A DNA stretch of 43,865 bases from Escherichia phage vB_EcolP_P433.1. The DNA is taken from the sequence record MN384978.1; one strand, 5' to 3'. Of this stretch, positions 8,548 through 43,802 are shown one piece after another. The notes below the pieces were generated by a model. It was not told where the DNA came from. It made no database searches and saw only the letters and a list, made by a program, of their open reading frames with translations. Each line of letters begins with the position of its first letter. Positions within the stretch are counted from its first letter, which is position 1. The position numbers and the translations under genes are program-made.

Positions 8548-8570
8548 TCCTTCTATAGTGTCCAGTAATT
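8548..8570 (-). promoter_or_regulatory. phage RNAP promoter AATTACTGGACACTATAGAAGGA
   Basis: Read as reverse complement; overlaps the terL stop codon; followed by a 130-nt AT-rich leader. Confidence 0.7.
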
Positions 8571-9300
8571 AATAAGTCCTTGAAATCCTTGCAGAAATGG
8601 TGTTTCGATTGGAAGACTTACTCCGGTAATTTTGCCCATACACTCGCCGCTGCATCGCCACAGAAGTGTTGGTTACTTTTCGCTCAGTCCCGTAATCTCC
8701 ATAGAGCATGGCCCTGCGGAGGTGAGGTGTGTTCATAGCTTGGATGTAATCGCGCATCTCTTGCGCTCTGAGGCGATTAATCCGTGTAACCTCATCATAG
8801 TCTATCTGAGAAGTTAATTGCCGTATAGCGCCGTACAGAGCGTCTAAGCGGTCATCGTGCCGGAGGCTGTTCTTCTCGATCGTGATGTTCGACATTTGAT
8901 TGAAAAGGCTATAGGACATGCGTAGCTCAAGCGGATAGTTCTGTACTGACTCAAAGTCAGACTTGACCATCTCAGCATTGAAGATGAGCCTGTGGGCCGC
9001 CATGAGTGGCTCCAGTGTCTCAATGATACGCAACTCTTTCTGTCCTGTGGCGTAATCCTCTTCCAGCGTTACAGGCCACTCTCGTTCAAAGTACGGCTTA
9101 ATTACGGCCTCAAACGCGCCATGACCGAAGTTTTTCTCTATGAATACCTCTTTAACACCCGCCTGCTTTGCGGACTGCACAATGCGATTCAGGGACGATT
9201 CGCGGTATCCACCCGGTACACCGAAGCACTGATACACGTAAATGAATGTGCCGTGCAGGAAGACAATCGCTACACCCGTTTCGTCCCCGTTCTTACCTCC
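8569..9300 (-). CDS. terL: terminase large subunit, exon 2 (nuclease domain, 243 aa)
   Basis: Frame begins GGKNGDETGVAIVFLHG, i.e. mid-way through the conserved nuclease motif, with no ATG or RBS of its own; in frame with exon 1 if the 9301-10046 insert is spliced out. Confidence 0.7.
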   Translation of the reverse strand, partial: GGKNGDETGVAIVFLHGTFIYVYQCFGVPGGYRESSLNRIVQSAKQAGVKEVFIEKNFGHGAFEAVIKPYFEREWPVTLEEDYATGQKELRIIETLEPLMAAHRLIFNAEMVKSDFESVQNYPLELRMSYSLFNQMSNITIEKNSLRHDDRLDALYGAIRQLTSQIDYDEVTRINRLRAQEMRDYIQAMNTPHLRRAMLYGDYGTERKVTNTSVAMQRRVYGQNYRSKSSNRNTISARISRTY

Positions 9301-9826
9301 CGGTTTGAACGTGACGTGCGAGCCAACCCTTGTGGTGTTTACGCAAACCACGTGCCACCTTACGCATATTCTGAGGTGTTAGGTTGTGCTCTTTACAGAA
9401 GTCAGTAATGCAAGTTACAAGAAACTCTTCACCATCTGGAGAAGTGAATATGTAATCTTTGCCAGTACCTTTGTTGTAAGGTGTCATGCCTTTCTTGAAC
9501 TCAGTAGCAACAGACAAGTGCTGTCCTTTCTTTATTTCAGTGGCAATACTTATGCGTTCACCTTTCTCGATGTTACCTGCTTTGCGATAACCACCTTTAC
9601 CCTTATTCCAACCAATGTTGTCATGTGGGCGTAGCTTTTCTTCTAGTGCATAACACTCTTCTTTGCTACCAGTGAATAAGATAACGTACTCGCGGCCATC
9701 ACAAAGACGGCCTGCGCACTTGTGCTCTCTCATACGCTTCTTAATATCGGAGGTTACACCAATATAACCTTGCATTACATCAGTTTCACCAACAACACGA
9801 ATATGATAAACTTTATGCTCTGTCAT
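9293..9826 (-). CDS. GIY-YIG homing endonuclease (177 aa) encoded inside the terL intron
   Basis: KVYHIRVV...GYIGVT...RMREH GIY-YIG module at the N-terminus; NUMOD3-like repeats (ISIATEIKKGQHLSVATEFKKG); AGGGAG RBS before the ATG at 9826; stop codon lies 8 nt inside terL exon 2. Confidence 0.8.
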   Translation of the reverse strand: MTEHKVYHIRVVGETDVMQGYIGVTSDIKKRMREHKCAGRLCDGREYVILFTGSKEECYALEEKLRPHDNIGWNKGKGGYRKAGNIEKGERISIATEIKKGQHLSVATEFKKGMTPYNKGTGKDYIFTSPDGEEFLVTCITDFCKEHNLTPQNMRKVARGLRKHHKGWLARHVQTGR

Positions 9827-10046
9827 ATTTAACTCCCTTCAATTGTTACGTTAATTCGCTACTTTAACTTCCACTAGTCACCTAGTGGGTCGGACTATAT
9901 CTTAGGCTTGCGCCTCCCTCTGTTTCAGACCGCTTGGCCTTACAGTTAGTCTCTACACGTTCCTATCATTGCAACAGGCTTCGCTCGGTATTGTCTCAGT
10001 GAGAGTTCCACCGAATTAAGAGGGTTTTACGCTGGCAGAGGTGTTT
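9301..10046 (-). mobile_element. putative group I intron (746 nt) interrupting terL
   Basis: P1 pairing between exon end GCUGGU and internal guide GCCAGC; P10 pairing between exon-2 start GGAGG and CCUCU; terminal G at 9301; R-like AGAGACUAACUG (rc of 9943-9954) and S-like AAGAUAUAGUCC (rc of 9891-9902) core elements; splicing restores one 632-aa terminase frame. Confidence 0.65.
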
Positions 10047-11213
10047 ACCAGCAGGGTCAATATACATAATCTTACGGGTAACAGCACCCCATTCATACGG
10101 TCGGGCCACAGGCCGATACATGACATCTGTAGGCTTATTGCCATACTTCGGTGCGTCGCCAATGATGTTAATAGAATCATTGCTCCACGTAGGCATCACA
10201 GGAACTTCCTCTGTACCGAATGAAGTGAAGATGAGGTTGTTCAAGCGAAGTGGGTAGCGGTCAGCGTCCATCATGCGAGTGTTAAGCATAAACTGAAGCT
10301 GGAACTTAGCCGCACCCTGCGATATTTCCTTCTCGATCAGGACATCATCATCATACATTTCAGGTGCACAAGGAGCACCACTGTTACCGTCTAACCCATA
10401 ACCAGAGCGAAGTGCTGGGTTATCCTTCATATCCTGCACAATCATAGGCGCAAGGAAGTCACCATAGCATTGCTCCTGCTCCACTGAAGGGTAACGTGCA
10501 GTCCAGATACGAACAGAGTAACCACGAGCAGGTAAGTTATTGTAGATAGAGTTTACGTTCTGAGGTGTACCAAGGTAGATAATATCACCAAACTGGTTGA
10601 TAGATTCAAACTCTTTGGTCAATTCCTCAAGTAAGGCACGGCCTGCTGCTGTACGAGCATTCTGCATCGACTCAACGTCATCTGCAAGGATGATATCTGC
10701 ACGAGCACCCTGCATGCCTGCTTCGATTGAATAGCAGGATACAGAAGGTGACTTATCGCTACCACGTAAAGTGTAGTGAATCTCGAATGCCTTAACGGAT
10801 GCACGGTCTCCTGCGTAAATATCCGGTAACATAAACTCAAGGAAGTCTAAGCCACGAAAGATTTTAACTACCCAACCTGCGATTTCCTCTGCTCGCTTGG
10901 CGTTTTGGGATACAACCATTATACGCTTATGCGGTTCATGGATAATACGGAATACCGTATAGATTGCTGATAGTGTTGTCTTAGCGATACCACGAGGCGC
11001 TTCGATGAGTCGATACTTGTGTCCGTAGAATAGGAACTTCAAGATATCAGCCTGCATACGAATCAGATGAGGGTTGCCTGCAATCAAGTTATGAATAACT
11101 GTGTCTGCAAAGAGAAGCAAACCTTCCGCTGTATAGGGAAAGGTCTGCTGTAGTTCCTGTAGCATCTCCCATCTGGCAAGAGCCTCCGCTTGTGATTCTC
11201 TTGCCTTAGCCAT
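10047..11213 (-). CDS. terL: terminase large subunit, exon 1 (ATPase domain, 389 aa)
   Basis: Walker A PRGIAKTT and Walker B DIILADDVE; ends ...KIMYIDPAG at the proposed 5' splice site; the track ORF continues 16 codons into the intron before a stop at 9996. Confidence 0.75.
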
Positions 11214-11515
11214 TAATTATCCTCTTTTGTAAACTGAATGATCTTGCCACTAGATGCCTCTCGGATAGCCTTGAGACGCTTAGATAGCTTGGACTCTTCC
11301 TGCTGTGCAGCAGGTGTAGCTGTAATTCCATTATCAAGAACCCACTTACACATGGCACCAATGTCCTTACCGGATACTAAGTGTAGTGCTGCATCTGGGT
11401 CTTCTTCTATAGTGTCCAGTATTGCCTGTGCTTTCTTATTAAAGATCTTGGTAATAGCACCATGCAGAATGCCAACCTCATCTTCTGTAGCTGCATGTTT
11501 ATTGTGTACGCTCAC
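11213..11515 (-). CDS. terS: putative terminase small subunit (100 aa)
   Basis: Assigned by position between holin and terL as in T7 (gene 18); GTG start with AGGAGA RBS; no motif-level support. Confidence 0.5.
   Translation of the reverse strand: MSVHNKHAATEDEVGILHGAITKIFNKKAQAILDTIEEDPDAALHLVSGKDIGAMCKWVLDNGITATPAAQQEESKLSKRLKAIREASSGKIIQFTKEDN
11402..11424 (-). promoter_or_regulatory. weak phage-promoter-like sequence CAATACTGGACACTATAGAAGAA inside terS
   Basis: Matches the consensus from -13 to +6 but diverges at -17 to -15; lies inside the coding sequence. Confidence 0.4.
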
Positions 11516-16534: not shown

Positions 16535-19480
16535 CTAGCTCAGTTTAATCCTACCAATCTGAGCATTAGGCACTAATGCGCCTTTCTTTGGAGGATACAC
16601 TTGCATCCATCCATCTTTACCAATCTGGTTGTAGATAGACTTATTAACGAATGCCTCTGACATTTGACCAGAGAACTTGACATACATAGAGCCATCCTCT
16701 CGTGTTTCCACTTCACTAATCTTAGGGACTGCACCACCGCTCTGTGCTAGGTTGTAGGCCTCTGCTCTGCGTACTAAAAGGGCCGGACTACGTTTACCTT
16801 CTGTGGATGCAGTAGATAGCATTTCGATGAACCCATCTGTAAACTTTCCAGCCTTGAATGCGGCGTAAGCCTTAGGTGCATTTTGGATACCACCTTTGCC
16901 TAAGTTATAAGATAAATCCATCAACCCACGTTGCACACCTGGATGCATGTCTTCAAAAGACACAGCCCAGCCTGCGGTACTAGGCACGTGGCTTTTCAAG
17001 TCTTGTTGCAGTAAGCGCATAGCGCGTTCAGGGGTTAACTGCGACTGTCCCGGATTGAATGGAACTTTGTCTGTACCAATCATAATGTACCCGTTCTTCT
17101 TCTCTTCGTCCGTAAGGAAATGACCATACCCTACAGATTGACCGTGTGCATCTTTGTAAGGTGTATAAACACCAGCTACTCTGTCAAAACCCACATTGGC
17201 ACTGTTCTCAGCTTTGGCTACATAATTATAGAAGTCCATATTATTCCTCTTATACCCAAACTCAAAGTTTGCTGGTAGGTTCTCACCTGATGCAAAGGCT
17301 GGTGACATTAAGAAGTCAGCAATCCCACGTGATCCTACAGTTTTGGCTGTAGTCTTTGCAGGCGGTTGTGCTTGGTATCCACCTGCACCCCACATCCTCA
17401 TTTGCTGTGCTTCAAAATTCTTACGCCCCTCATCCCGTGATTTAACTTCTGCATCATACCGTTGCTTAAGTAAGGATTGCCCTTTGATTTCAGACAAGGG
17501 CATTGCCTGTGTAACAGGTACACGACCAGAGCCTGCACGTATGGTAAAGAGTCCACGCTGCGCATCTACATCAAAATACAAATCCCCTTCTTCTAAGCCG
17601 CCTGATGCATCAAGAAGTGCTTGCTTGTTGTTATCCATATATTGACGTAGTGCCAGAGGCAGGTCGTTCTGGTTTACTCCTATAGTGTCACCTAATGTGC
17701 GAACATCACCTTTCACCAGAACACCTTGGGTAAAGAAACCCTCAGATAGCTGTGTATACTGGCTAGTCAAGTAGGATTTAAGATGACGTTTAATCGTGTC
17801 ATTATTATGGCCTGCAACCTTCATTGCTCTCGCAATTGTACTGGCTTCCTCCAGCATAATGTCACGACCCATCTCGCTCATGTTATCTCCACGAGTAAGC
17901 CAACTACCCCCTGCCACATCACTGACAACCCCATCTACATCCTCATTCAGTTCTTTAAGTACAGAACCTTGTAGTCTCTCTCCGCGAGAGGCATTCTGTG
18001 CAAACTCGATAGCTTGACCTGCATTATACCCCATGCGAGTTGCTAAGTCGTAGTTCTCTACAAAGGCATACTCCTTATCTCCCATGACAGCACGACGTGC
18101 ATCTTCTGGGATAGAGTCACGCGCTCGCATAATAGTCTGTAATGCTTCAGGCTCAACCTTCATATCTTTAAGGTTGGCAGAGGATAACTGCATAAGCGAC
18201 GAATATCTTTCCTTAATGATTGGGTCTTCAATAAGTTGTTGCCCCAGTTTAAGATAACGCATCTGCTCGTACCTACCACGAATAGCTTCAGCTTGTTCTC
18301 CGGTTGCACCAGTGCGGGCAATTTCATCTTCTGCCAACTTAGTATAAGTGGTAACTAATGCCTCTGCGTAAGCCTTCCTGTCATCTTTGCTAATGTCCTG
18401 CAAACCTAGAGGGGAGTCAGATTCTCCTCGTTTAATGAGGTCTTCCAGTTTTGCTGCCTCTGCATTAACCTTAGCTTGCCTATCGAAGATAGCTTTGATT
18501 TCACTATCAGACCAAGCAGTACCCCCGGTCAACTCATTGTGATTCTGCATTACCTGAAGTAACTCTTCACGAGTAAGTTGCCCTGCATCGAATGCCTTTA
18601 TAGCAGCATCCTTCTTCTCGAAGAGGGCGACCTGATTCTGTGCAGCCCAAGTCCTATTAGCTTGAATTTCTCCAGTTTGCAAAGCACCAACACGGTCGTA
18701 CAAAGAGACACCCTTATCATCCACCAGTGCTTTGGTGCCCTGAATAAGACTATCATCTCCTACTGCCGCCCTATCAGATGCAATCTTAGCAACCATTTGA
18801 TCAAACTCAGGTTTACTAAGACCCATTGCCAGTGCTTCTTTTTGTAGCTGAATGAGTGCTGCACCAGTGGCATCAGGTGCTACATCCTTTGTAGCCATGA
18901 TAATACGAGCCTGCATAGATTGCATACGCGCTTCTTCTTCTTGACGAAGTTTAGCCTCTGCTCTCGTAGCGGTGATTCGAGGTTGCTGCTCCATGAACGC
19001 GTTAGTGACAATCCTCATAGAATCCTTGTCACCACGAAGCTCTGGATAGCTTTGCCACAATCTATTTTGTACCTCATTACGAGATTGAACTACATAGTTT
19101 TCCCAATCTTCGTCACTGCCTTGAAATCGCTGTGCTTCTGCCTGTAGAGCAGCTGTCTGTGCGATTACATCATTTTGCAAACTAACCAGCATATGAGCAC
19201 GAGCACCACCTACTGTTGCATCCTCAGATGGCACCATACCAGATAATGCCCTGTCCATCTGGCGTACCTTATCTTCCTCAACCTTCTGATTAAGGATTCC
19301 AGTAGTAACATCAGCTACACTACTAGCTGCTTGAATAAGGTCTTCGATAAATCTACTACCGGAGTTAGAAGCCACGCCAGCATCAACACCACCCACTTGC
19401 TGGGGTGCAAAAGTCATGACATTAGGGGAAGTAGCCCGCACTTGTGGCAGTCCTTGTACTGCTTGTCTCTCAATTGCCAT
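16535..19480 (-). CDS. internal virion protein with C-terminal lysozyme-like (T4-lysozyme/GH24-type) domain (981 aa)
   Basis: Around aa 750-910 (about 16750-17235) the segment AENSANVGFDRVAGVYTPYKDAHGQSVGYGHFL matches the T4 lysozyme catalytic region (E...YKDTEGYYTIGIGHLL); position corresponds to T7 gp15. Confidence 0.7.
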   Translation of the reverse strand: MAIERQAVQGLPQVRATSPNVMTFAPQQVGGVDAGVASNSGSRFIEDLIQAASSVADVTTGILNQKVEEDKVRQMDRALSGMVPSEDATVGGARAHMLVSLQNDVIAQTAALQAEAQRFQGSDEDWENYVVQSRNEVQNRLWQSYPELRGDKDSMRIVTNAFMEQQPRITATRAEAKLRQEEEARMQSMQARIIMATKDVAPDATGAALIQLQKEALAMGLSKPEFDQMVAKIASDRAAVGDDSLIQGTKALVDDKGVSLYDRVGALQTGEIQANRTWAAQNQVALFEKKDAAIKAFDAGQLTREELLQVMQNHNELTGGTAWSDSEIKAIFDRQAKVNAEAAKLEDLIKRGESDSPLGLQDISKDDRKAYAEALVTTYTKLAEDEIARTGATGEQAEAIRGRYEQMRYLKLGQQLIEDPIIKERYSSLMQLSSANLKDMKVEPEALQTIMRARDSIPEDARRAVMGDKEYAFVENYDLATRMGYNAGQAIEFAQNASRGERLQGSVLKELNEDVDGVVSDVAGGSWLTRGDNMSEMGRDIMLEEASTIARAMKVAGHNNDTIKRHLKSYLTSQYTQLSEGFFTQGVLVKGDVRTLGDTIGVNQNDLPLALRQYMDNNKQALLDASGGLEEGDLYFDVDAQRGLFTIRAGSGRVPVTQAMPLSEIKGQSLLKQRYDAEVKSRDEGRKNFEAQQMRMWGAGGYQAQPPAKTTAKTVGSRGIADFLMSPAFASGENLPANFEFGYKRNNMDFYNYVAKAENSANVGFDRVAGVYTPYKDAHGQSVGYGHFLTDEEKKNGYIMIGTDKVPFNPGQSQLTPERAMRLLQQDLKSHVPSTAGWAVSFEDMHPGVQRGLMDLSYNLGKGGIQNAPKAYAAFKAGKFTDGFIEMLSTASTEGKRSPALLVRRAEAYNLAQSGGAVPKISEVETREDGSMYVKFSGQMSEAFVNKSIYNQIGKDGWMQVYPPKKGALVPNAQIGRIKLS
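17675..17697 (-). promoter_or_regulatory. SP6-type promoter CATTAGGTGACACTATAGGAGTA inside the internal-virion-protein gene
   Basis: Identical to the SP6 consensus from -15 to +1 (TTAGGTGACACTATAG), unlike the other promoters here which carry CTG or CCG at -12 to -10. Confidence 0.5.
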
Positions 19481-20205: not shown

Positions 20206-22607
20206 TAGACCCTCCTTTTGGTTGGATTGTAGCTTCCTTCCCACTCAATATCACGAAGCTGGAATGTGTGAGGTGACTCTACAATAATACGATAAACAAC
20301 ATCCGTGCTCTTAGCTCTCAGTGGGAATCTGAAGACACCCTCTCTTGGTTCAACATAACCTACTGTATTGTTGAGAGCGCCACCTATGCGGTTTGATGCT
20401 AACACCCTGCGTACTTTACCACTCTTCACATTCTTAACTTCCAATGAGAAGTCTGGATACATATCTAGGTTAAGGTGAACCAACCCCACAACTGGCACAT
20501 CAATATAAGATACGCGGTCTTGATTATCTCTAATAACCACAGGTGTAGGTTCAAACTCTTGAGGATAAATCTGACCAACAATGACTTTTGCCTTTACGTG
20601 GTTATCATCGTACATATCAAAAGTTGTAGATAAAGTGTTATCACCGGGGTTGTATTTGAATAAGAAAGAGCCGCCAATATATGAATCCCAGCCTTCTATT
20701 AAGATGCAATCCAAGAGTTCTGGGTTAGTAGGGACCCAAGGGAGTGGTTCAGATACCCATTCGTCTTCTGCTTTGAAATGCTGGAAGATTAACTCTGCCT
20801 GCCTGTCCATTCGGATGCGGTCATTCAAACCATAGGTCAAGGCATCACCCATATCCATCTTCTCCAGATAGACACCATTACCTCTCTCAAGGAGCAGGTA
20901 AAGTAATTCACCAGAATAAAACATACCTCGCACCTTTGTACCCAAAGGCCACTCCCACACATGCCAAGCTGATTGAACACGGTCTGTGCCCTGCCATAAC
21001 CAATCATAACAGTAAATTATATTATGATACTTATCTGTAGTGACAAGCAGTCTGTTGACATTGGTGCTTGCTGCCATGTTAGTAATGTTACCTTCGATGA
21101 GCTTGTTCACATGGCTTGTGATTGCCTGTGCTTTCTTAGTGTCACTATAAGAGTCTGTATAGAACTCTCGTACACCAGAGTAGGCTCCATCATTTGTAGC
21201 GAACATTACGGATTCACCAGTGGCAACTGGCTTAACTTTGTTGTTCACCTCAAATGTAGTTACAGGTTTGAGTAAGGCATTAGACTTCTCCAGCGGTTTA
21301 TCTCCCGGCAAGATAAATTGAGATTTATCAGAGAACAGCACAGTCGCACCATCTAAGGTCACTGCATGTTTCAACTGGTAAACTTCACTCGCATCTGAGA
21401 AGATATCGAATGGATCGGTAGCCAAAGCCGAGATAACCGTGTAACGGAAGAAATCAAAGAAGTAGGAAGTGCGTGATGCAATGACAGCTTCACCTGCTGT
21501 AAAGCATAAACGATTCTGCACCATGAACATCCCGCCAATTGTCTGGGGAACTTCTTCATCAATGAAAGATGGCATAGGGTTAGTGAGGTCATCGCCTACC
21601 TTGCGGTCTTCCCAATCTCCTTGCCTAATCTTAAATTGAGCAATACCATCAATAATGCCAGTACGCTCAATGATATAAGGCATAGTGCCTTTATCAAAAC
21701 CAAGCAATACGTCAGCAGCAACTGTCTCTTGCCAAGATACTAAATTGCCCTCTTTTGGCTCTGCTTCCAACCAATAACGTGACTCGGGTTTGCTTCCAGT
21801 GGGCCACACCTGTACTTTATACCCTTCAGGTGCACGAGAAGGAAGGAGATCAGTAGAGCTGACCTTATTCTTGATAGCCACTAGATCTTTTCCCTTTGCA
21901 CCATCGGTGGTTGTTACTGTAAAACTTGCACCATCACGTCTTTCTATAAATATACTTGTACCATCTCTTTGTATTTCATAATCACCAACACCACTCCATT
22001 GCTGCAACTTAGAGTACAATTCAGAAGTGATATGTTCCGTTCGAATTTGTTCAACCTGCTCTGCGCTTCCACCATCCGGTGTTTTAAAACTAGCAGCGTT
22101 GGCACCATTAATTATAATGGAATAAGATGTACCGTATTGACCATATGCACAAAACACAATGGCTTTGTTTCCAACTTTGGATGACTTTCTGTTACTGGCT
22201 TTAACTACCTTCCTGCGGTTAAGCATGAAAGTAACATCAGCTATCGTCATAAATTGCACATCTTCTCTTGGGTTTATCACCTCAGCCAAGTAAGTCATAG
22301 GTGCATCTTGTGAGGTCACATTGCATTTGCGCCCATACTTATCGAATATCTCAGGGACTTGTCCTTTCTTCAATGTGAAGAAATACTCTTCATCACCATC
22401 ACCTCTGCGATAATGGTGTGTGGCCATATCATCAGTACCCGCATCAAGTATCTTTGCAATATGAGTTGTACCCATGCGTGATTGCGTGCCATTCACCACA
22501 TCAGGTATCATATTAATCATAGCCGTACACTGACCATCCAAGCGTACCGCTGGAGGTTGCTGGCTAATCCCTTGGATTTGTCTGCCTAATGAACCTTGTA
22601 CTTCCAT
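20205..22607 (-). CDS. tail tubular protein B, gp12-like (800 aa)
   Basis: Size and position match T7 gp12 (794 aa); start at the ATG overlapping the upstream stop (TAATG). Confidence 0.7.
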   Translation of the reverse strand: MEVQGSLGRQIQGISQQPPAVRLDGQCTAMINMIPDVVNGTQSRMGTTHIAKILDAGTDDMATHHYRRGDGDEEYFFTLKKGQVPEIFDKYGRKCNVTSQDAPMTYLAEVINPREDVQFMTIADVTFMLNRRKVVKASNRKSSKVGNKAIVFCAYGQYGTSYSIIINGANAASFKTPDGGSAEQVEQIRTEHITSELYSKLQQWSGVGDYEIQRDGTSIFIERRDGASFTVTTTDGAKGKDLVAIKNKVSSTDLLPSRAPEGYKVQVWPTGSKPESRYWLEAEPKEGNLVSWQETVAADVLLGFDKGTMPYIIERTGIIDGIAQFKIRQGDWEDRKVGDDLTNPMPSFIDEEVPQTIGGMFMVQNRLCFTAGEAVIASRTSYFFDFFRYTVISALATDPFDIFSDASEVYQLKHAVTLDGATVLFSDKSQFILPGDKPLEKSNALLKPVTTFEVNNKVKPVATGESVMFATNDGAYSGVREFYTDSYSDTKKAQAITSHVNKLIEGNITNMAASTNVNRLLVTTDKYHNIIYCYDWLWQGTDRVQSAWHVWEWPLGTKVRGMFYSGELLYLLLERGNGVYLEKMDMGDALTYGLNDRIRMDRQAELIFQHFKAEDEWVSEPLPWVPTNPELLDCILIEGWDSYIGGSFLFKYNPGDNTLSTTFDMYDDNHVKAKVIVGQIYPQEFEPTPVVIRDNQDRVSYIDVPVVGLVHLNLDMYPDFSLEVKNVKSGKVRRVLASNRIGGALNNTVGYVEPREGVFRFPLRAKSTDVVYRIIVESPHTFQLRDIEWEGSYNPTKRRV

Positions 22608-23344
22608 TAACGATCCTCCCATGGACGAAGTGTCCAATTGTCATAAGGTGAATGAGAGTAAGCAGGTACATTCTGAGAGCCACCAGCCATGATGCCAAAC
22701 TGACGCTGAGTAGGGTTATGTACTAACATGTTCAACCTCTTCTGCGACATTTGTTCAGACTGCACATCCATAAGAAGCTGGGTAGCAATCTGCTGTGCTG
22801 TAGCCAGTTTAGTTTTGTCTGCATCCTTAGATACAATAAACTCTGCCGCAGCTTGATATGCAATTGCTTGCATTACACTTGTAGGGAGGTGCTCATAAGG
22901 GAGCAGTGTAAGTAAGGTAAGTCGCAGCATACCATTTGCATTAACATGCTTGCGCATATCAAAGGTGTGACTCCAAGTAGAGTACAATTTACCCGCGCGC
23001 ATAGTCATCGGGACTTTCTTCTCACCCAAAGCATAACATTGCAACACAGCAAGGCAATTATTGGGTAGGTTAACCTCACCATTTGCGTCTGGTGCAATTT
23101 GCCAGTTAGGTTCACGGTTGAACCACCAGCCACCGCCTTTGTTATACTGGAAGCGCTGAGACACAATATCAATCATCTTGCTTGCATCTTCTGCATCCAA
23201 GTCACCAGAGTCGAGAGAATCCACACCCTCACGACCAATGGCTCGCATACACAAGTTGACCGCTTCAAGTTTACTATCAATAATCTGGAAGGCCACATCT
23301 TCCATCATGTGTCCTACTTTACTGGTTTGTTTAATTACAGGCAT
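22607..23344 (-). CDS. tail tubular protein A, gp11-like (245 aa)
   Basis: Follows the capsid gene and terminator; start placed at ATG 23344 with AGGAGG RBS (track start at 23359 is not ATG). Confidence 0.65.
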   Translation of the reverse strand: MPVIKQTSKVGHMMEDVAFQIIDSKLEAVNLCMRAIGREGVDSLDSGDLDAEDASKMIDIVSQRFQYNKGGGWWFNREPNWQIAPDANGEVNLPNNCLAVLQCYALGEKKVPMTMRAGKLYSTWSHTFDMRKHVNANGMLRLTLLTLLPYEHLPTSVMQAIAYQAAAEFIVSKDADKTKLATAQQIATQLLMDVQSEQMSQKRLNMLVHNPTQRQFGIMAGGSQNVPAYSHSPYDNWTLRPWEDR

Positions 23345-23354
23345 GAACCCTCCT

Positions 23355-23391
23355 AACAAAAAGAGCCCTACCTACGCAAGGTAGATAGGGC
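23355..23391 (-). terminator. hairpin plus U-tract terminator after the major capsid gene
   Basis: 11-bp stem (GCCCUAUCUAC / GUAGGUAGGGC, one G.U) with a 5-nt loop followed by UCUUUUUGUU on the transcript; same place as T7 T-phi. Confidence 0.6.
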
Positions 23392-23398
23392 ATAGGTA

Positions 23399-24604
23399 TT
23401 ACTCAGCAGGTTTCATTGCAGTCGGCTTAATGTCATTAGCCATTACAGCACGAACAGCAGCAACCAAGTCTTCAGCAGACAAGCTAGAAGCAGCGGCAGC
23501 AACCTGAGCAGCATTCTTGACATACACTGCTTTACGCTGTGCACGGTTCAGAACCTGAGTATGCTGTGCGGCCTGAGTTGCAGTAGTGGTAGGCGTGCCA
23601 TTTGTCTCTCGCTTGGTGGTAACTACAGACACTGCCTCCCAACGGTCAGGGATTGCACCTTCAGACATAAAGGTGTCAATGTAATAGGTCTTCTCTTTCT
23701 TCTCATAGAAGATATCACCGGTTACATCAATGGAACGACCAACAAGCAGAGCGTCAGCTGTGAACAGTACAGCGATAGCGCCATTCATTTCTGCAGTCGG
23801 GTCATAACGATAACCGTTGTCTTCATTTGACAGCAGGTGATGTTTCTGACCCTCAGAGAATTTAGGGAAGCGGTTAGACGGGATAACAGGGCAGTTGTAA
23901 GAAGACAGAACAAAACCCTGAATGGTTGCACCAGACTGGCTAATGGTATAGCTCTTGTCAACGATACGGTCTGCATCACGCAGTACGTTGAAGTAGCGCC
24001 ACGGCATCAGGATGGCTACATCGGAGATGTCTACTTCCTGCTCAAGCTGCTGCTCCAGAGCAAACTCTACAGCCGCCATTACATACTGCGGGTTGACCAG
24101 TGCTTCACTTTCTGCAACTTCTACGTTGACAGAGAAGCCATGACCTTTAACACGCGGGTTGGTACGCTTAGCCTGAGTGTTAGCAATACCGCCCAGCAGC
24201 ATCTGCTGAATCAACATTTCATCTTCCATCTTCTTCAGCTGCTTAGCTTGGTTAGTAGCCAGCTTCGGCTTCAGGCTATCAATGTCACCCTGTACGTCAT
24301 GCAGGTGTGCAACAGTGTTACGAGCGATAACAGTGGCATCAATTACCAGTTGGTTTTTATCGGCCTGAGTAGAGGTTGCAGCCGGAGACTGGCCCGGTGC
24401 CAGAACCTGCAACTCGGTTTCACCCAAGTATTTGTTGCTTACAGTATTAGTACCAGTAACAGTCTGAACATCAAAGTATGACATGATGTTCTCACCCTTC
24501 AGGTACTGCTCATTTACCTTACCATTGAATTTCTCAATGAGAAGGCTGTCTACCTCACCGGAAGCGGAGACTGCAACGTTGGTCAGGTTATTCGGCGTAG
24601 ACAT
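23399..24604 (-). CDS. major capsid protein (401 aa)
   Basis: Strong AAGGAGG RBS; directly downstream of a consensus phage promoter and followed by a terminator; follows the scaffold gene as in T7 gene 10. Confidence 0.85.
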   Translation of the reverse strand: MSTPNNLTNVAVSASGEVDSLLIEKFNGKVNEQYLKGENIMSYFDVQTVTGTNTVSNKYLGETELQVLAPGQSPAATSTQADKNQLVIDATVIARNTVAHLHDVQGDIDSLKPKLATNQAKQLKKMEDEMLIQQMLLGGIANTQAKRTNPRVKGHGFSVNVEVAESEALVNPQYVMAAVEFALEQQLEQEVDISDVAILMPWRYFNVLRDADRIVDKSYTISQSGATIQGFVLSSYNCPVIPSNRFPKFSEGQKHHLLSNEDNGYRYDPTAEMNGAIAVLFTADALLVGRSIDVTGDIFYEKKEKTYYIDTFMSEGAIPDRWEAVSVVTTKRETNGTPTTTATQAAQHTQVLNRAQRKAVYVKNAAQVAAAASSLSAEDLVAAVRAVMANDIKPTAMKPAE

Positions 24605-24652
24605 TAATAAACCTCCTTATAAATCAAATTGATAATTTAGGGAGACATTTCT

Positions 24653-24675
24653 CCCTTCTATAGTGTCCAGTAAAT
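24653..24675 (-). promoter_or_regulatory. phage RNAP promoter ATTTACTGGACACTATAGAAGGG (capsid promoter)
   Basis: Read as reverse complement; lies between the scaffold and capsid genes. Confidence 0.8.
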
Positions 24676-29115: not shown

Positions 29116-29437
29116 TACATTCGTGACGATGCTTCTGGAACAACTCTTTATAGTAGTCTGCTTTCTTCAGGTCTTCTTCAGTATTGAACTTATTACCTGC
29201 ACGCAGACGATACTTCAAAGCGTTACCCATGCAATAGCCTGCGAATTGCTTCTCTGTCATGCTACGGGCAATGATAGTGATTGCTTCTACACCATCGAAG
29301 AACTCATAGTGCTTCGGCTTCGTAACCATATTGTTGTCCAACACGTTGGACTTAACCTTGGCTTTGCAAGTGTGAGGGTATCTATCGTCCTTCTCTAAGC
29401 AGGCAATGCAGGTATTATCATAATGATGTTGTAACAT
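29099..29437 (-). CDS. hypothetical protein (112 aa), possibly DUF3310-type
   Basis: Start placed at ATG 29437 with GGAGGA RBS (track start 29455 is GTG); Cys/His-rich N-terminus; the KPKHYEF...GNALKYRLRAG motif recalls DUF3310 phage proteins, a tentative match. Confidence 0.4.
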   Translation of the reverse strand: MLQHHYDNTCIACLEKDDRYPHTCKAKVKSNVLDNNMVTKPKHYEFFDGVEAITIIARSMTEKQFAGYCMGNALKYRLRAGNKFNTEEDLKKADYYKELFQKHRHECIDEDI

Positions 29438-32137: not shown

Positions 32138-32256
32138 AATTCATTCTCCAATAACTATTACGCAAAAGACCCTGCCTACACTAAGGCAGACAGGGCATTA
32201 GATGAGGTGAGCGTGATAGCCACAACTAGGACTAACAGAGGCAACACCTGCTATTA

Positions 32257-40845: not shown

Positions 40846-40861
40846 GTCTCACATGTGAGAC
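40846..40861. repeat. inverted repeat GTCTCAC-AT-GTGAGAC
   Basis: Read directly; abuts the upstream edge of the promoter at 40818-40840. Confidence 0.6.
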
Positions 40862-41027: not shown

Positions 41028-41031
41028 ATGA

Positions 41032-41047
41032 GTCTCACATGTGAGAC
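41032..41047. repeat. inverted repeat GTCTCAC-AT-GTGAGAC
   Basis: Read directly; about 75 nt after the polymerase stop and 4 bp upstream of the promoter at 41005-41027. Confidence 0.6.
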
Positions 41048-41119
41048 ACTTTATGTTAATGAAATGTTACAGGTAGTGGGTAAAGAAAAGGCCACTCCCG
41101 AAGGAATGGCCTATCAATA

Positions 41120-43802
41120 TTATGCAAAGCAATAGTCAGAAACTAAGATCTCTTCAAGGTTAAACTCCCCTTGCTCCGGCACTTGGATACCAGTATCCAC
41201 TAACCAGCGCTCTTCGTGCTCATCTAACAGGCTTTGCAGGGCATTACGTCCTTGGTACATTTTCACCATTTCTGCCCTTAAGCTATCCCGCAGGTCTGCG
41301 GTGCGGCCTGCATGAGTGCCAAAAGAGTCATGAATAACTGCAATGGATGTTATACCTTTATCCACGAGGTCACATACAGTCAGGATAAGGTGGCTAGCAT
41401 CATGACCATGAACAAAATTAGGAGCCGCTGCACCCATCATCGCCGTTTCATCAACTACGTCTGTTTCAATCTGGAGACTCATCTTGATTTCACCCATCAA
41501 GCAAGTTGATACGCGAAGCATATCGGTTGCCATTATCTTTTGTTGCAAGATGAAGCCAGTAGGCAAGGTGTATTCTAACCCTTCATTTCTTTTAGCTGCG
41601 AATCGTGCTAGTTGGCGAATCATTCTCATCGCCACTATAGGTGCTTTAACAACCTCAGAGATTGAAGGCCAGATTAAAGCCGTCATATAATTATAGGCCG
41701 CACCAGTAGTTAAGTAGTCTTTGCGGTCATTATCAAAAGGGTGCACAGGATTCGCCGTCCGCCCTTCTGCAATAGCTCTTTGCGCCTCTTTTTCTTCCAA
41801 ATCAACGATATAATCAATCACAGACTCACGGCAGGTTAAGCGGGTGGAACCATAAGGCAAGGTCATTACGGGCTTTTTGGTTAAGCCACGAGTGATACCT
41901 ATCATATCCCATGCGCTAGCCATGCTACGCAGTTCTGCTCCTGTAAGTGTCACGCTTCCAGAGGTGAAAGTCTCTGCATCATCTGCATTCATGTAAGCGT
42001 AATTCTTCTGGATAACCACTTGCGCCACCGCCCCATAAATATCTTGCGGTGAGTCTGACGGCTTAAGGTTTACCGCCTTAGCGCCTACTTCATCACGTAG
42101 CATCGCACTATAATGCTGAATACCAGAACAACTACCGTCTTGGTGTACTGGTAAGTGCGTCATGAATTGGTCTTGTGTACCTTCATCCAAAGCATCAAGG
42201 TAACGAGCATACTCAAAGCACCACGCAAGGAATCCATAAGGAGAATCAGCATTTACCCATTGAGTAAAAGTCAGCGGGTCGGCTGCAATATCGCGGCACA
42301 TATCTTGAAATTCGCCATCCAGCACATTAGCGGTGCGCACGTCAAAAGTTTTCTTATCCCAACCCCAGTTATTCGCCCCGTTCACCAAAAACCACTTAAG
42401 CGCCTCAGCGCTGTTTATAGTCTGCCCTTCGGTAAACCGTAGTAGCGCCTTGCCTAAGTCATTTGATTGCGGCGAGAGTGTGCTAGATTGCGCGTATACA
42501 CGGCTGCGGCTGTCCAGTGCATATACGAAGTAAATAGCGTTGAAGTGGCTGTATTTACGGGCCTGCCCGACCATGCGAACGGTTGCCGCCGATTTACTGC
42601 CGCGCTTAGTCTCTGCGGTGTACAGCTTGGTGCATTCACCTTTCCAGTTGATAAATGCGTGCCATTGTTCTGGGGTTAGCATTTCTTTTAGTTCACGACC
42701 GCGCAGGTGTTGGAACTCAAGAGGAACAGGATTAGCGGGCTTGTTCTCCCGGTCGATGAGTGGTTTAAAGGAGGGCACACCATAACCAAGATCGAGGCGG
42801 ATAACATCTTCAACAACCTGCAACACTTCCTTATTAACCTGCCACTTGGTCGCCTGCAAAGCGTTAACAGCCTTGTAAACCGCTGGCATTTGCTTTTTGG
42901 TTAGCTTGCGGACGTGCTCGCGGTTGCCTTTAACCAGACGGATACGGCTTGCCACTTTCTCAGTGTGAAAACCTCCATTAAAAGGGGACACCCAAGGGCG
43001 CGGAGGGATAACGCAAGGTGCATAGGCTGGACTAAGCTGCGCTACGTGCTCTTTGAAGGCCGTTATCCACTCCCCAACGTGTTCACTAGTCTGTAAGTAG
43101 TAAACGCCATGTTTGCCGCCGTTAGTGCGCAAGGTGCGGAGGAAAACAGGCTGCCCGTTGAAGAATACACTATTTTCCAAGATTTCTAGCAAGGTCATGC
43201 CTATTTGCAGCAAGGTATCCTTAGGCCATGCCTCCCAGCGGGAGAAATCAGCGTCACGGTCAGATACAGACTTCTCAGCCACAACTGCTACGTTGTGCGC
43301 ATGGCGATAGGATTTAGTCTTGCTTGCCTTAAGTGACTTCTTAACCTTCTCGAAGTATTTGGCGGCGTGACCTTCCAGCTTGCTAAATCGCACTTGGTCT
43401 TCAATGCGGTCAGCTACATTCATGGCTATGGCTTGCAAGGTTACATCTGTGTTCAACATATCCATGACAATCTTCATCGTGATATAGGCTGCCACTTCAT
43501 TTTCTACGCAGTTAATGAAAGCTAATGCACGAGGTGCACGGCCTCTTTTACCTTCATACTCTTCCTTGTATGCCTGAATACCTTCAGCCATTGGCGCGAT
43601 TAACTCGGATAATAAGCGGCGATTCCAAGCCGTATCCGATTCGTTACCGGATGCAATTTGGCGCTGTTGGTCTGCTTCAAAGCGACGAATACCGCCGTTA
43701 AACATTTCTTCTTCAAGCTGAAGCTGGATAGCGTGTAGGTCTAATACCGCCGTTAAACATTTCTTCTTCAAGCTGAAGCTGGATAGCGTGTAGGTCTTGC
43801 AT
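41120..43802 (-). CDS. single-subunit DNA-dependent RNA polymerase, SP6-type; 5' end disrupted by a 55-bp tandem duplication
   Basis: Near-identity over long stretches to SP6 RNA polymerase as remembered (e.g. [49 protein letters not shown]-terminus ...DYCFA). The RBS-preceded ATG at 43802 encodes [20 protein letters not shown] and then frameshifts; the intact frame 41120-43771 begins only at a TTG. Confidence 0.85.
43688..43797. repeat. perfect direct tandem duplication, 2 x 55 bp (43688-43742 and 43743-43797)
   Basis: Both units read AATACCGCCGTTAAACATTTCTTCTTCAAGCTGAAGCTGGATAGCGTGTAGGTCT; the bases flanking each unit differ, so the repeat is exactly 55 bp. Confidence 0.9.

Follow-up and report, generated by a model that had tools for sequence, protein, structure and literature searches.

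In phage T7, the late terminator Tφ lies between gene 10 and gene 11. No strong phage promoter stands right after Tφ, and the downstream tail genes rely on readthrough. Virions of the T7 group contain hundreds of capsid subunits and a dozen or so tail tube subunits.

A closely comparable element has been characterized biochemically in phage SP6. In a study of termination by the T7, T3, and SP6 RNA polymerases, Song et al. (Nucleic Acids Res 52:9092, 2024; PMC11347151) describe SP6 t5 as a class I terminator located after the SP6 major capsid gene. Their t5 template contains GCCCTATCTACCTTGCGTAGGTAGGGT TCTTTTGTTTAGGAGGATTCATGCC, and their oligonucleotide SP6-B reads AAGCCGACCGAGGAATAACCTATGCCCTATCTACCTTGCGTAGGTAGGGTTCTTTTGTTTAGGAGGATTCATGCCTGTAATT... 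(PMC11347151). SP6 RNA polymerase terminated at t5 with an efficiency of 85.3 +/- 2.2% in vitro, at nearly a single site, and T7 RNA polymerase with an efficiency of 16.2 +/- 2.2%; release at t5 was directly observed in both single-molecule and bulk assays with the SP6 polymerase alone (PMC11347151).

Comparable elements have been reported in other relatives. In UAB_Phi78, a terminator lies downstream of the major capsid gene, and terminator positions are as in SP6 (PMC4837284). In LUZ100, a more distant T7 relative, long-read transcriptomics showed control of the capsid gene by a local phage promoter together with a strong terminator right after the gene, an arrangement described as "similar to T7" (PMC10134795). 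A terminator is also annotated at the spot equivalent to the one analyzed here in MK373773, MK373771, and NC_028916 (two Vectrevirus and one Proteus Acadevirus); these and the UAB_Phi78 terminator represent the same element in the same position, assigned by computation (ARNold, MFOLD, FindTerm). The SP6 records AY370673 and AY288927 have no regulatory features annotated, and no transcript map of a Vectrevirus or SP6-like phage emerged from our literature searches. Because SP6 t5 has been named and measured, and because the site is annotated in close relatives, the capsid-gene terminator is already known. Here we describe its counterpart in a K1E-like genome and how that counterpart compares with these systems.

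Genome Context

The window, by which we mean the whole 43.9-kb stretch of DNA that was analyzed, matches 137 phage records over 2.1 kb around the site. The best match is Escherichia phage vB_Ec-G9 (97.8%), followed by K1E-, K1-5-, and SP6-type phages (Molineuxvirinae), and the RNA polymerase encoded in the window is 85% identical to SP6 RNA polymerase. Judged from its sequence, the window belongs to a Vectrevirus, a K1E/K1-5-like relative of SP6 within the Molineuxvirinae.

The window is the reverse complement of the published SP6 and K1E maps and is circularly permuted with respect to them. The minus strand opens with the RNA polymerase gene (43771..41120), and the genes located before it on the SP6 and K1E maps wrap to the low-coordinate end of the window. 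Just after this gene, at 41112..41089 on the minus strand, is a 10-bp hairpin, AGGCCATTCC-TTCG-GGAGTGGCCT, followed by TTTCTTT; it is probably equivalent to the early terminator reported after gp8 in UAB_Phi78. Past this hairpin, the palindrome GTCTCACATGTGAGAC occurs twice (41047..41032 and 40861..40846), and each copy is closely followed by a phage promoter-like site (at 41030 and 40843, respectively). Elsewhere, a group I intron (RF00028, 63.6 bits, Rfam match 9871..10078) interrupts the gene for the terminase large subunit (8569..11213, minus strand). The intron carries a homing endonuclease ORF (9826..9293) with weak GIY-YIG and NUMOD-like Pfam matches, and the C-terminal exon of the terminase has a T7-terminase RNaseH-like domain. 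This split arrangement is already known; K1E annotates it as 40A / 40.5 / 40B.

Position and Structure of the Hairpin

All long ORFs of the window lie on the minus strand. The genes that flank the site are as follows.

23399..24604, minus strand: major capsid protein gene, 401 aa, with stop codon TAA at 23401-23399 (PHROG 267 major head protein, E = 1.7e-99)
22607..23344, minus strand: tail tubular protein A gene, 245 aa, with start codon ATG at 23344 (Pfam PF17212 Tube, E = 2.4e-56)

Relatives annotate the orthologue of the first as the major capsid protein, and the start of the second is identical in the annotated K1E gp32 and SP6 gp33. The tail tubular B gene follows that of tail tubular A.

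Between the two flanking genes, the minus strand reads GCCCTATCTAC-CTTGC-GTAGGTAGGGC at 23391..23365, with the tract TCTTTTTGTT directly 3' of this hairpin at 23364..23355. A first-pass annotation of this DNA had proposed a hairpin with an 11-bp stem and a U-tract at 23355-23391, and direct reading of the minus strand bears out the coordinates, the stem, and the tract exactly. It had left the strand unstated; the feature, from 23391 to 23355, is on the minus strand, the strand common to all genes. Its parts, together with the ribosome site that follows, are listed here.

23381..23391, minus strand: 5' arm of the terminator stem, GCCCUAUCUAC, paired in all cells of the alignment described below and with compensatory changes across relatives
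23376..23380, minus strand: terminator loop CUUGC, whose sequence and length vary in relatives while the stem is kept
23365..23375, minus strand: 3' arm of the terminator stem, GUAGGUAGGGC, closed by a G-C pair where most relatives have G.U
23355..23364, minus strand: U-rich tract UCUUUUUGUU, the presumed site of RNA release; a T-rich tract is kept in 17 of 17 distinct relatives
23349..23354, minus strand: Shine-Dalgarno sequence AGGAGG of tail tubular A; AGGAG is invariant, and the last G is present in at least 90% of aligned sequences

The stem comprises 11 pairs, six of them G-C, four A-U, and one a U.G wobble at pair 7, around a loop of 5 nt. Eight of the 10 nucleotides in the tract are U, five of them consecutive. 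On the opposite strand no T-run is found past the hairpin, and thus the element is unidirectional.

The hairpin starts 7 nt past the capsid stop codon. From this stop codon to the tail tubular A ATG (23344-23342), the gap is 54 nt, rather than the 40 nt initially given for it; a value of ~39-40 nt is obtained only if translation is assumed to begin at the upstream in-frame TTG at 23359. The K1E gap between the same genes is also 54 nt, and relatives annotate the ATG start. The ribosome site had likewise been described as overlapping the U-tract; instead, AGGAGG (23354-23349) abuts the last U.

Alone, the 27-nt hairpin has a folding energy of -17.3 kcal/mol. In a 76-nt context the energy is -25.9 kcal/mol, with a z of only -2.0 and 7 of 200 shuffles equally stable. 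We also scanned for terminators, requiring a stem of 10 bp or more, a loop of 3-8 nt, and 7 or more T among the next 10 bases. On both strands of the window, 23391..23355 was the sole site of this description; among 60 dinucleotide shuffles of one strand, only 3 had a site of this kind. Rfam 15 gave no match in the region at the gathering threshold, nor for 23250-23500 with the cutoff relaxed to E <= 1; Rfam has no families for generic terminators.

Other classes of signal were considered and rejected. The class II signal of T7 RNA polymerase, at which the enzyme pauses or terminates, consists of an ATCTGTT motif followed by a U-run and needs no hairpin; there is no ATCTGTT in 23460..23300 of the minus strand. 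The RNase III sites of T7-group late mRNAs are irregular duplexes of ~20 bp or more, and the stem here is only 11 bp, with no longer conserved helix.

The Transcription Unit Around the Capsid Gene

The promoters of the window were mapped from 11 exact ACACTATAG sites, all on the minus strand, which define the consensus ATTTACTGGACACTATAGAAG and the one weight matrix (PWM) used for the search. Two features at the head of the capsid gene emerge from this map and from direct reading of the sequence.

24658..24675, minus strand: promoter for the phage RNA polymerase, ATTTACTGGACACTATAG; transcription is predicted to start at the G at 24658 (+1; exact ACACTATAG site, PWM score 38.9)
24640..24655, minus strand: capsid mRNA leader hairpin GGGAGA-AAUG-UCUCCC, read directly from the sequence

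The promoter at 24675-24658 lies within the 76 nt that separate the scaffold gene from the capsid gene, and the SP6 P8 oligonucleotide of Song et al. maps to the equivalent position upstream of the SP6 capsid gene. Six further phage promoters are found upstream of it, all on the minus strand, for a total of seven upstream of the terminator hairpin, which is thus downstream of a phage promoter, in the sense orientation, and at a gene end. The capsid gene has its own promoter on one side and the hairpin on the other, and the predicted mRNA is ~1.3 kb. The leader hairpin has 6 bp and starts 3 nt past the predicted +1 (24658). At the equivalent place, the SP6 leader has GGGAGG-UAGU-CCUCCC, with a compensatory A-U to G-C change. 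The leader hairpin is reminiscent of the stem-loop with which the T7 phi10 leader begins.

Downstream of the terminator hairpin, no promoter-like site occurs for ~5.7 kb, until a weaker match at ~17700; the next strong promoter site is at 11427. The weaker match (~17700..17675, minus strand) is CATTAGGTGACACTATAGGAG, inside a 981-aa ORF (16535..19480); it is nearer to the SP6 consensus TAGGTGACACTATAG than to the phage's own consensus TACTGGACACTATAG, and its SP6 counterpart lies inside gene 35, at 29391 of the record. Tail tubular A, tail tubular B, and the first internal virion genes are thus without an evident promoter of their own. We also searched for sigma-70-like promoters between the terminator and the next phage promoter; 21 were found versus 28.5 expected from shuffles, and because such matches are not enriched, they provide no evidence of host-promoter rescue of tail gene transcription. 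With no evident promoter, the tail genes would be transcribed by polymerases that pass the hairpin, and they probably depend on this readthrough. This dosage argument draws on a promoter search with a single weight matrix, and an unrecognized promoter between 23355 and 17700 would weaken it.

Comparison with SP6 t5 and T7 Tφ

Sequence comparison identifies the SP6-B oligonucleotide as the SP6 gap between capsid and tail tube A. Relative to SP6 t5, as given by this oligonucleotide and by the SP6 genome, the stem-loop is identical at 26 of 27 bases. The two elements also have in common their flanking genes, the distance to the downstream ribosome site and ATG, a U-rich tail, and a paired promoter upstream of the capsid gene (the equivalent of SP6 P8). 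They differ in the closing pair, which is G.U in SP6 (with U) and G-C here (with C), and in the U-tract, which is UCUUUUGUUU in SP6 and UCUUUUUGUU here. Further, the cognate polymerase is the 85% identical enzyme of this phage, whereas the published efficiencies refer to the SP6 enzyme acting on the SP6 sequence. The folding energy is -17.3 kcal/mol here versus -15.9 for SP6 t5. With its G-C closing pair and an extra U, the copy in this phage would, if anything, be slightly stronger than SP6 t5. The annotated stem-loops of the two Vectrevirus records also differ from ours only in the closing pair (G.U there, G-C here).

The relationship to T7 is of a different kind. The first-pass annotation had placed the hairpin in the same slot as Tφ, and the assignments of its neighbors as major capsid (PHROG) and tail tubular A (Pfam Tube) agree with that placement. 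The two elements share this slot, membership in the hairpin plus U-run class, and a local arrangement of promoter, gene, and terminator. The stem, however, is a perfect 11 bp here compared with ~15 bp in Tφ, the energies are -17.3 versus -22.8 kcal/mol, and the SP6-type element is a poor substrate for T7 polymerase (16%). Direct comparison with the T7 and T3 Tφ hairpins revealed no sequence similarity beyond a G/C stem base and the U-run. The element is thus best described, from these comparisons, as a positional analogue of Tφ and not an orthologue.

These data bear on the question of which polymerase the hairpin serves. A hairpin plus U-tract is the canonical form of a bacterial intrinsic terminator, and this one was found by a generic terminator scan here and by ARNold in relatives, as would be expected if it were relevant only to the host E. 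coli RNA polymerase and were ignored by the phage enzyme. Several observations make this highly improbable. First, SP6 RNA polymerase terminates with 85% efficiency on the near-identical SP6 element. Second, the site is deep in the late region, downstream of seven phage promoters. Finally, the strong terminator-like hairpin at 41112..41089, after the RNA polymerase gene, would stop the host polymerase earlier. The reading of the element as a terminator for the phage polymerase, with which its anatomy, strand, position, and conservation all agree as expected for class I, and which the 85% termination of the SP6 orthologue in vitro further supports, is thus the one that we develop below.

Conservation and Covariation

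We compared the gap between capsid and tail tube A in 15 annotated relatives and 25 IMG/VR loci. Every gap compared folds into a hairpin of 10-12 bp, followed by a T-rich run and then the AGGAGG site. The hairpin is kept in 17 of 17 distinct sequences, which come from Vectrevirus, Zindervirus (SP6), Acadevirus (Proteus), unclassified Klebsiella phages, and IMG/VR viral contigs; the hosts of phages with the hairpin include Escherichia, Salmonella, Citrobacter, Klebsiella, and Proteus. All 17 of these capsid-terminator sequences have the same GCCC/GGG stem base and the same U.G wobble at pair 7.

Covariation was scored in the 17 distinct aligned sequences over nine stem pairs, namely those whose alignment is free of register problems. 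Standard pairing holds in all 153 cells. Compensatory changes occur at three of the nine: pair 5 (U-A to C-G), pair 6 (A-U to G-C or C-G), and pair 9 (U-A to C-G). None of 500 shuffles reached the observed covariation score, and none of six slid registers contains any compensatory change. By eye, pairs 10-11 are also compensatory (for example, AC/GU to CG/CG in Proteus phages), and these were left uncounted because the alignment register shifts there. The loop, in contrast to the stem, is free to vary among relatives in both sequence and length. The covariation and the variable loop are the pattern expected of a structure under selection, and they exclude a chance origin.

Selection on a hairpin could, in principle, reflect functions other than termination. 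One possibility is that it acts mainly in RNA stability or processing, either by blocking 3' exonucleases or by offering a cleavage site of the RNase III type. It is true that 3' hairpins protect mRNA, that T7-group phages have RNase III sites between late genes, and that the capsid leader here also starts with a hairpin. But RNase III needs about two helical turns, more than an 11-bp stem provides, and a stability hairpin has no need of the U-tract, which is conserved; moreover, RNA release has been directly observed at the SP6 orthologue. We therefore give very little credence to stability or processing as the main function, and stabilization of the mRNA is best seen as a by-product of termination.

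A second possibility concerns translation. In the minimum-free-energy folds of the window and of several relatives, a weak outer helix forms in which CCUA (23396-23393), upstream of the hairpin, pairs with UAGG (23355-23352), where the tail tubular A ribosome site begins, and this helix could serve as an operator that regulates translation of tail tubular A rather than transcription. The pairing amounts to just 4 bp across a large bulge, however, and while the ribosome site is fixed, its upstream partner varies (ACCU, ACAC, AACU, AAUU); in Proteus and Klebsiella phages the pairing is lost without compensation. We rejected the outer helix on the ground that its upstream partner varies without compensation, and a translational operator is scarcely credible at this site.

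A Second Near-copy of the Terminator

A second terminator-like hairpin, GCCCTGTCTGC-CTTAGT-GTAGGCAGGGT (32196..32169) and then CTTTTGCG, is found at 32196..32160 on the minus strand. It is a near-copy of the capsid terminator, with an 11-bp stem, a U.G wobble at pair 7, and a ATGCCCTRTCTRCCTT start. The motif ATGCCCTRTCTRCCTT has two matches in the window versus 0.14 expected; aligned, the near-copies read ATGCCCTATCTACCTT...AGGGC at 23393 and ATGCCCTGTCTGCCTT...AGGGT at 32198. The element at 32196 and its downstream flank to the next gene start are almost invariant in SP6-like viral contigs and in SP6, and Klebsiella and Proteus phage records retain its core; in Proteus phage Premi, the match coincides with an annotated terminator. 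In a loose motif scan of IMG/VR (ATGCCCTNTC...AGGGNNNTTT), the matches listed were mostly unrelated generic terminators; after filtering, the SP6-like genomes among the matches listed have two such terminator sites each.

The near-copies, their common wobble, the invariant GCCC/GGG base and wobble among relatives, and the difference between 85% and 16% termination suggest that the terminator might carry a sequence-specific component tuned to SP6-type polymerases. We consider this idea speculative and rather unlikely. Polymerase-specific recognition would fit the difference in efficiency between the SP6 and T7 enzymes. If it were true that conserved bases, beyond hairpin stability, set the efficiency, the element would represent a polymerase-specific class I terminator module.

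Discussion

The element at 23391..23355, where the capsid gene ends, is very probably an intrinsic terminator of the hairpin-dependent type (class I), an orthologue of SP6 t5 and a positional analogue of Tφ.

By analogy to these systems, late in infection the single-subunit RNA polymerase of the phage would start at the promoter at 24658 and would also arrive from the promoters upstream. After it had transcribed the capsid gene, the 11-bp hairpin would form in the transcript, and the hairpin, together with the weak rU:dA hybrid in the U-tract, would release most transcripts at ~23358-23356 (within 23364-23355). The product would be an abundant capsid mRNA of ~1.3 kb with a 3' hairpin cap that may stabilize it. 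A minority of polymerases would read through into the genes for tail tubular A, tail tubular B, and the internal virion proteins. Readthrough of perhaps ~15% would supply the mRNA for tail tubular A and the genes behind it, and the tail tubular A ribosome site would be present solely on this readthrough RNA. Transcription of the tail genes would then be a fraction of the capsid level, a several-fold step down. Such a step in dosage is consistent with the subunit needs of T7-group virions. The proposal, made when the hairpin was first noted, that readthrough would control the dosage of the tail genes fits the promoter map, and we infer from that map and from SP6 t5 the efficiency and release site of termination in this phage, as well as its effect on tail gene dosage.

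These results are useful for annotation of this genome, and they open no new question. On the model of its SP6 orthologue, the element might also serve as a compact terminator in expression cassettes for SP6- or K1E-type polymerases. For the phage itself, the terminator would explain how one late polymerase can make far more capsid mRNA than tail mRNA, with the capsid gene set between its own promoter and a strong but leaky terminator.
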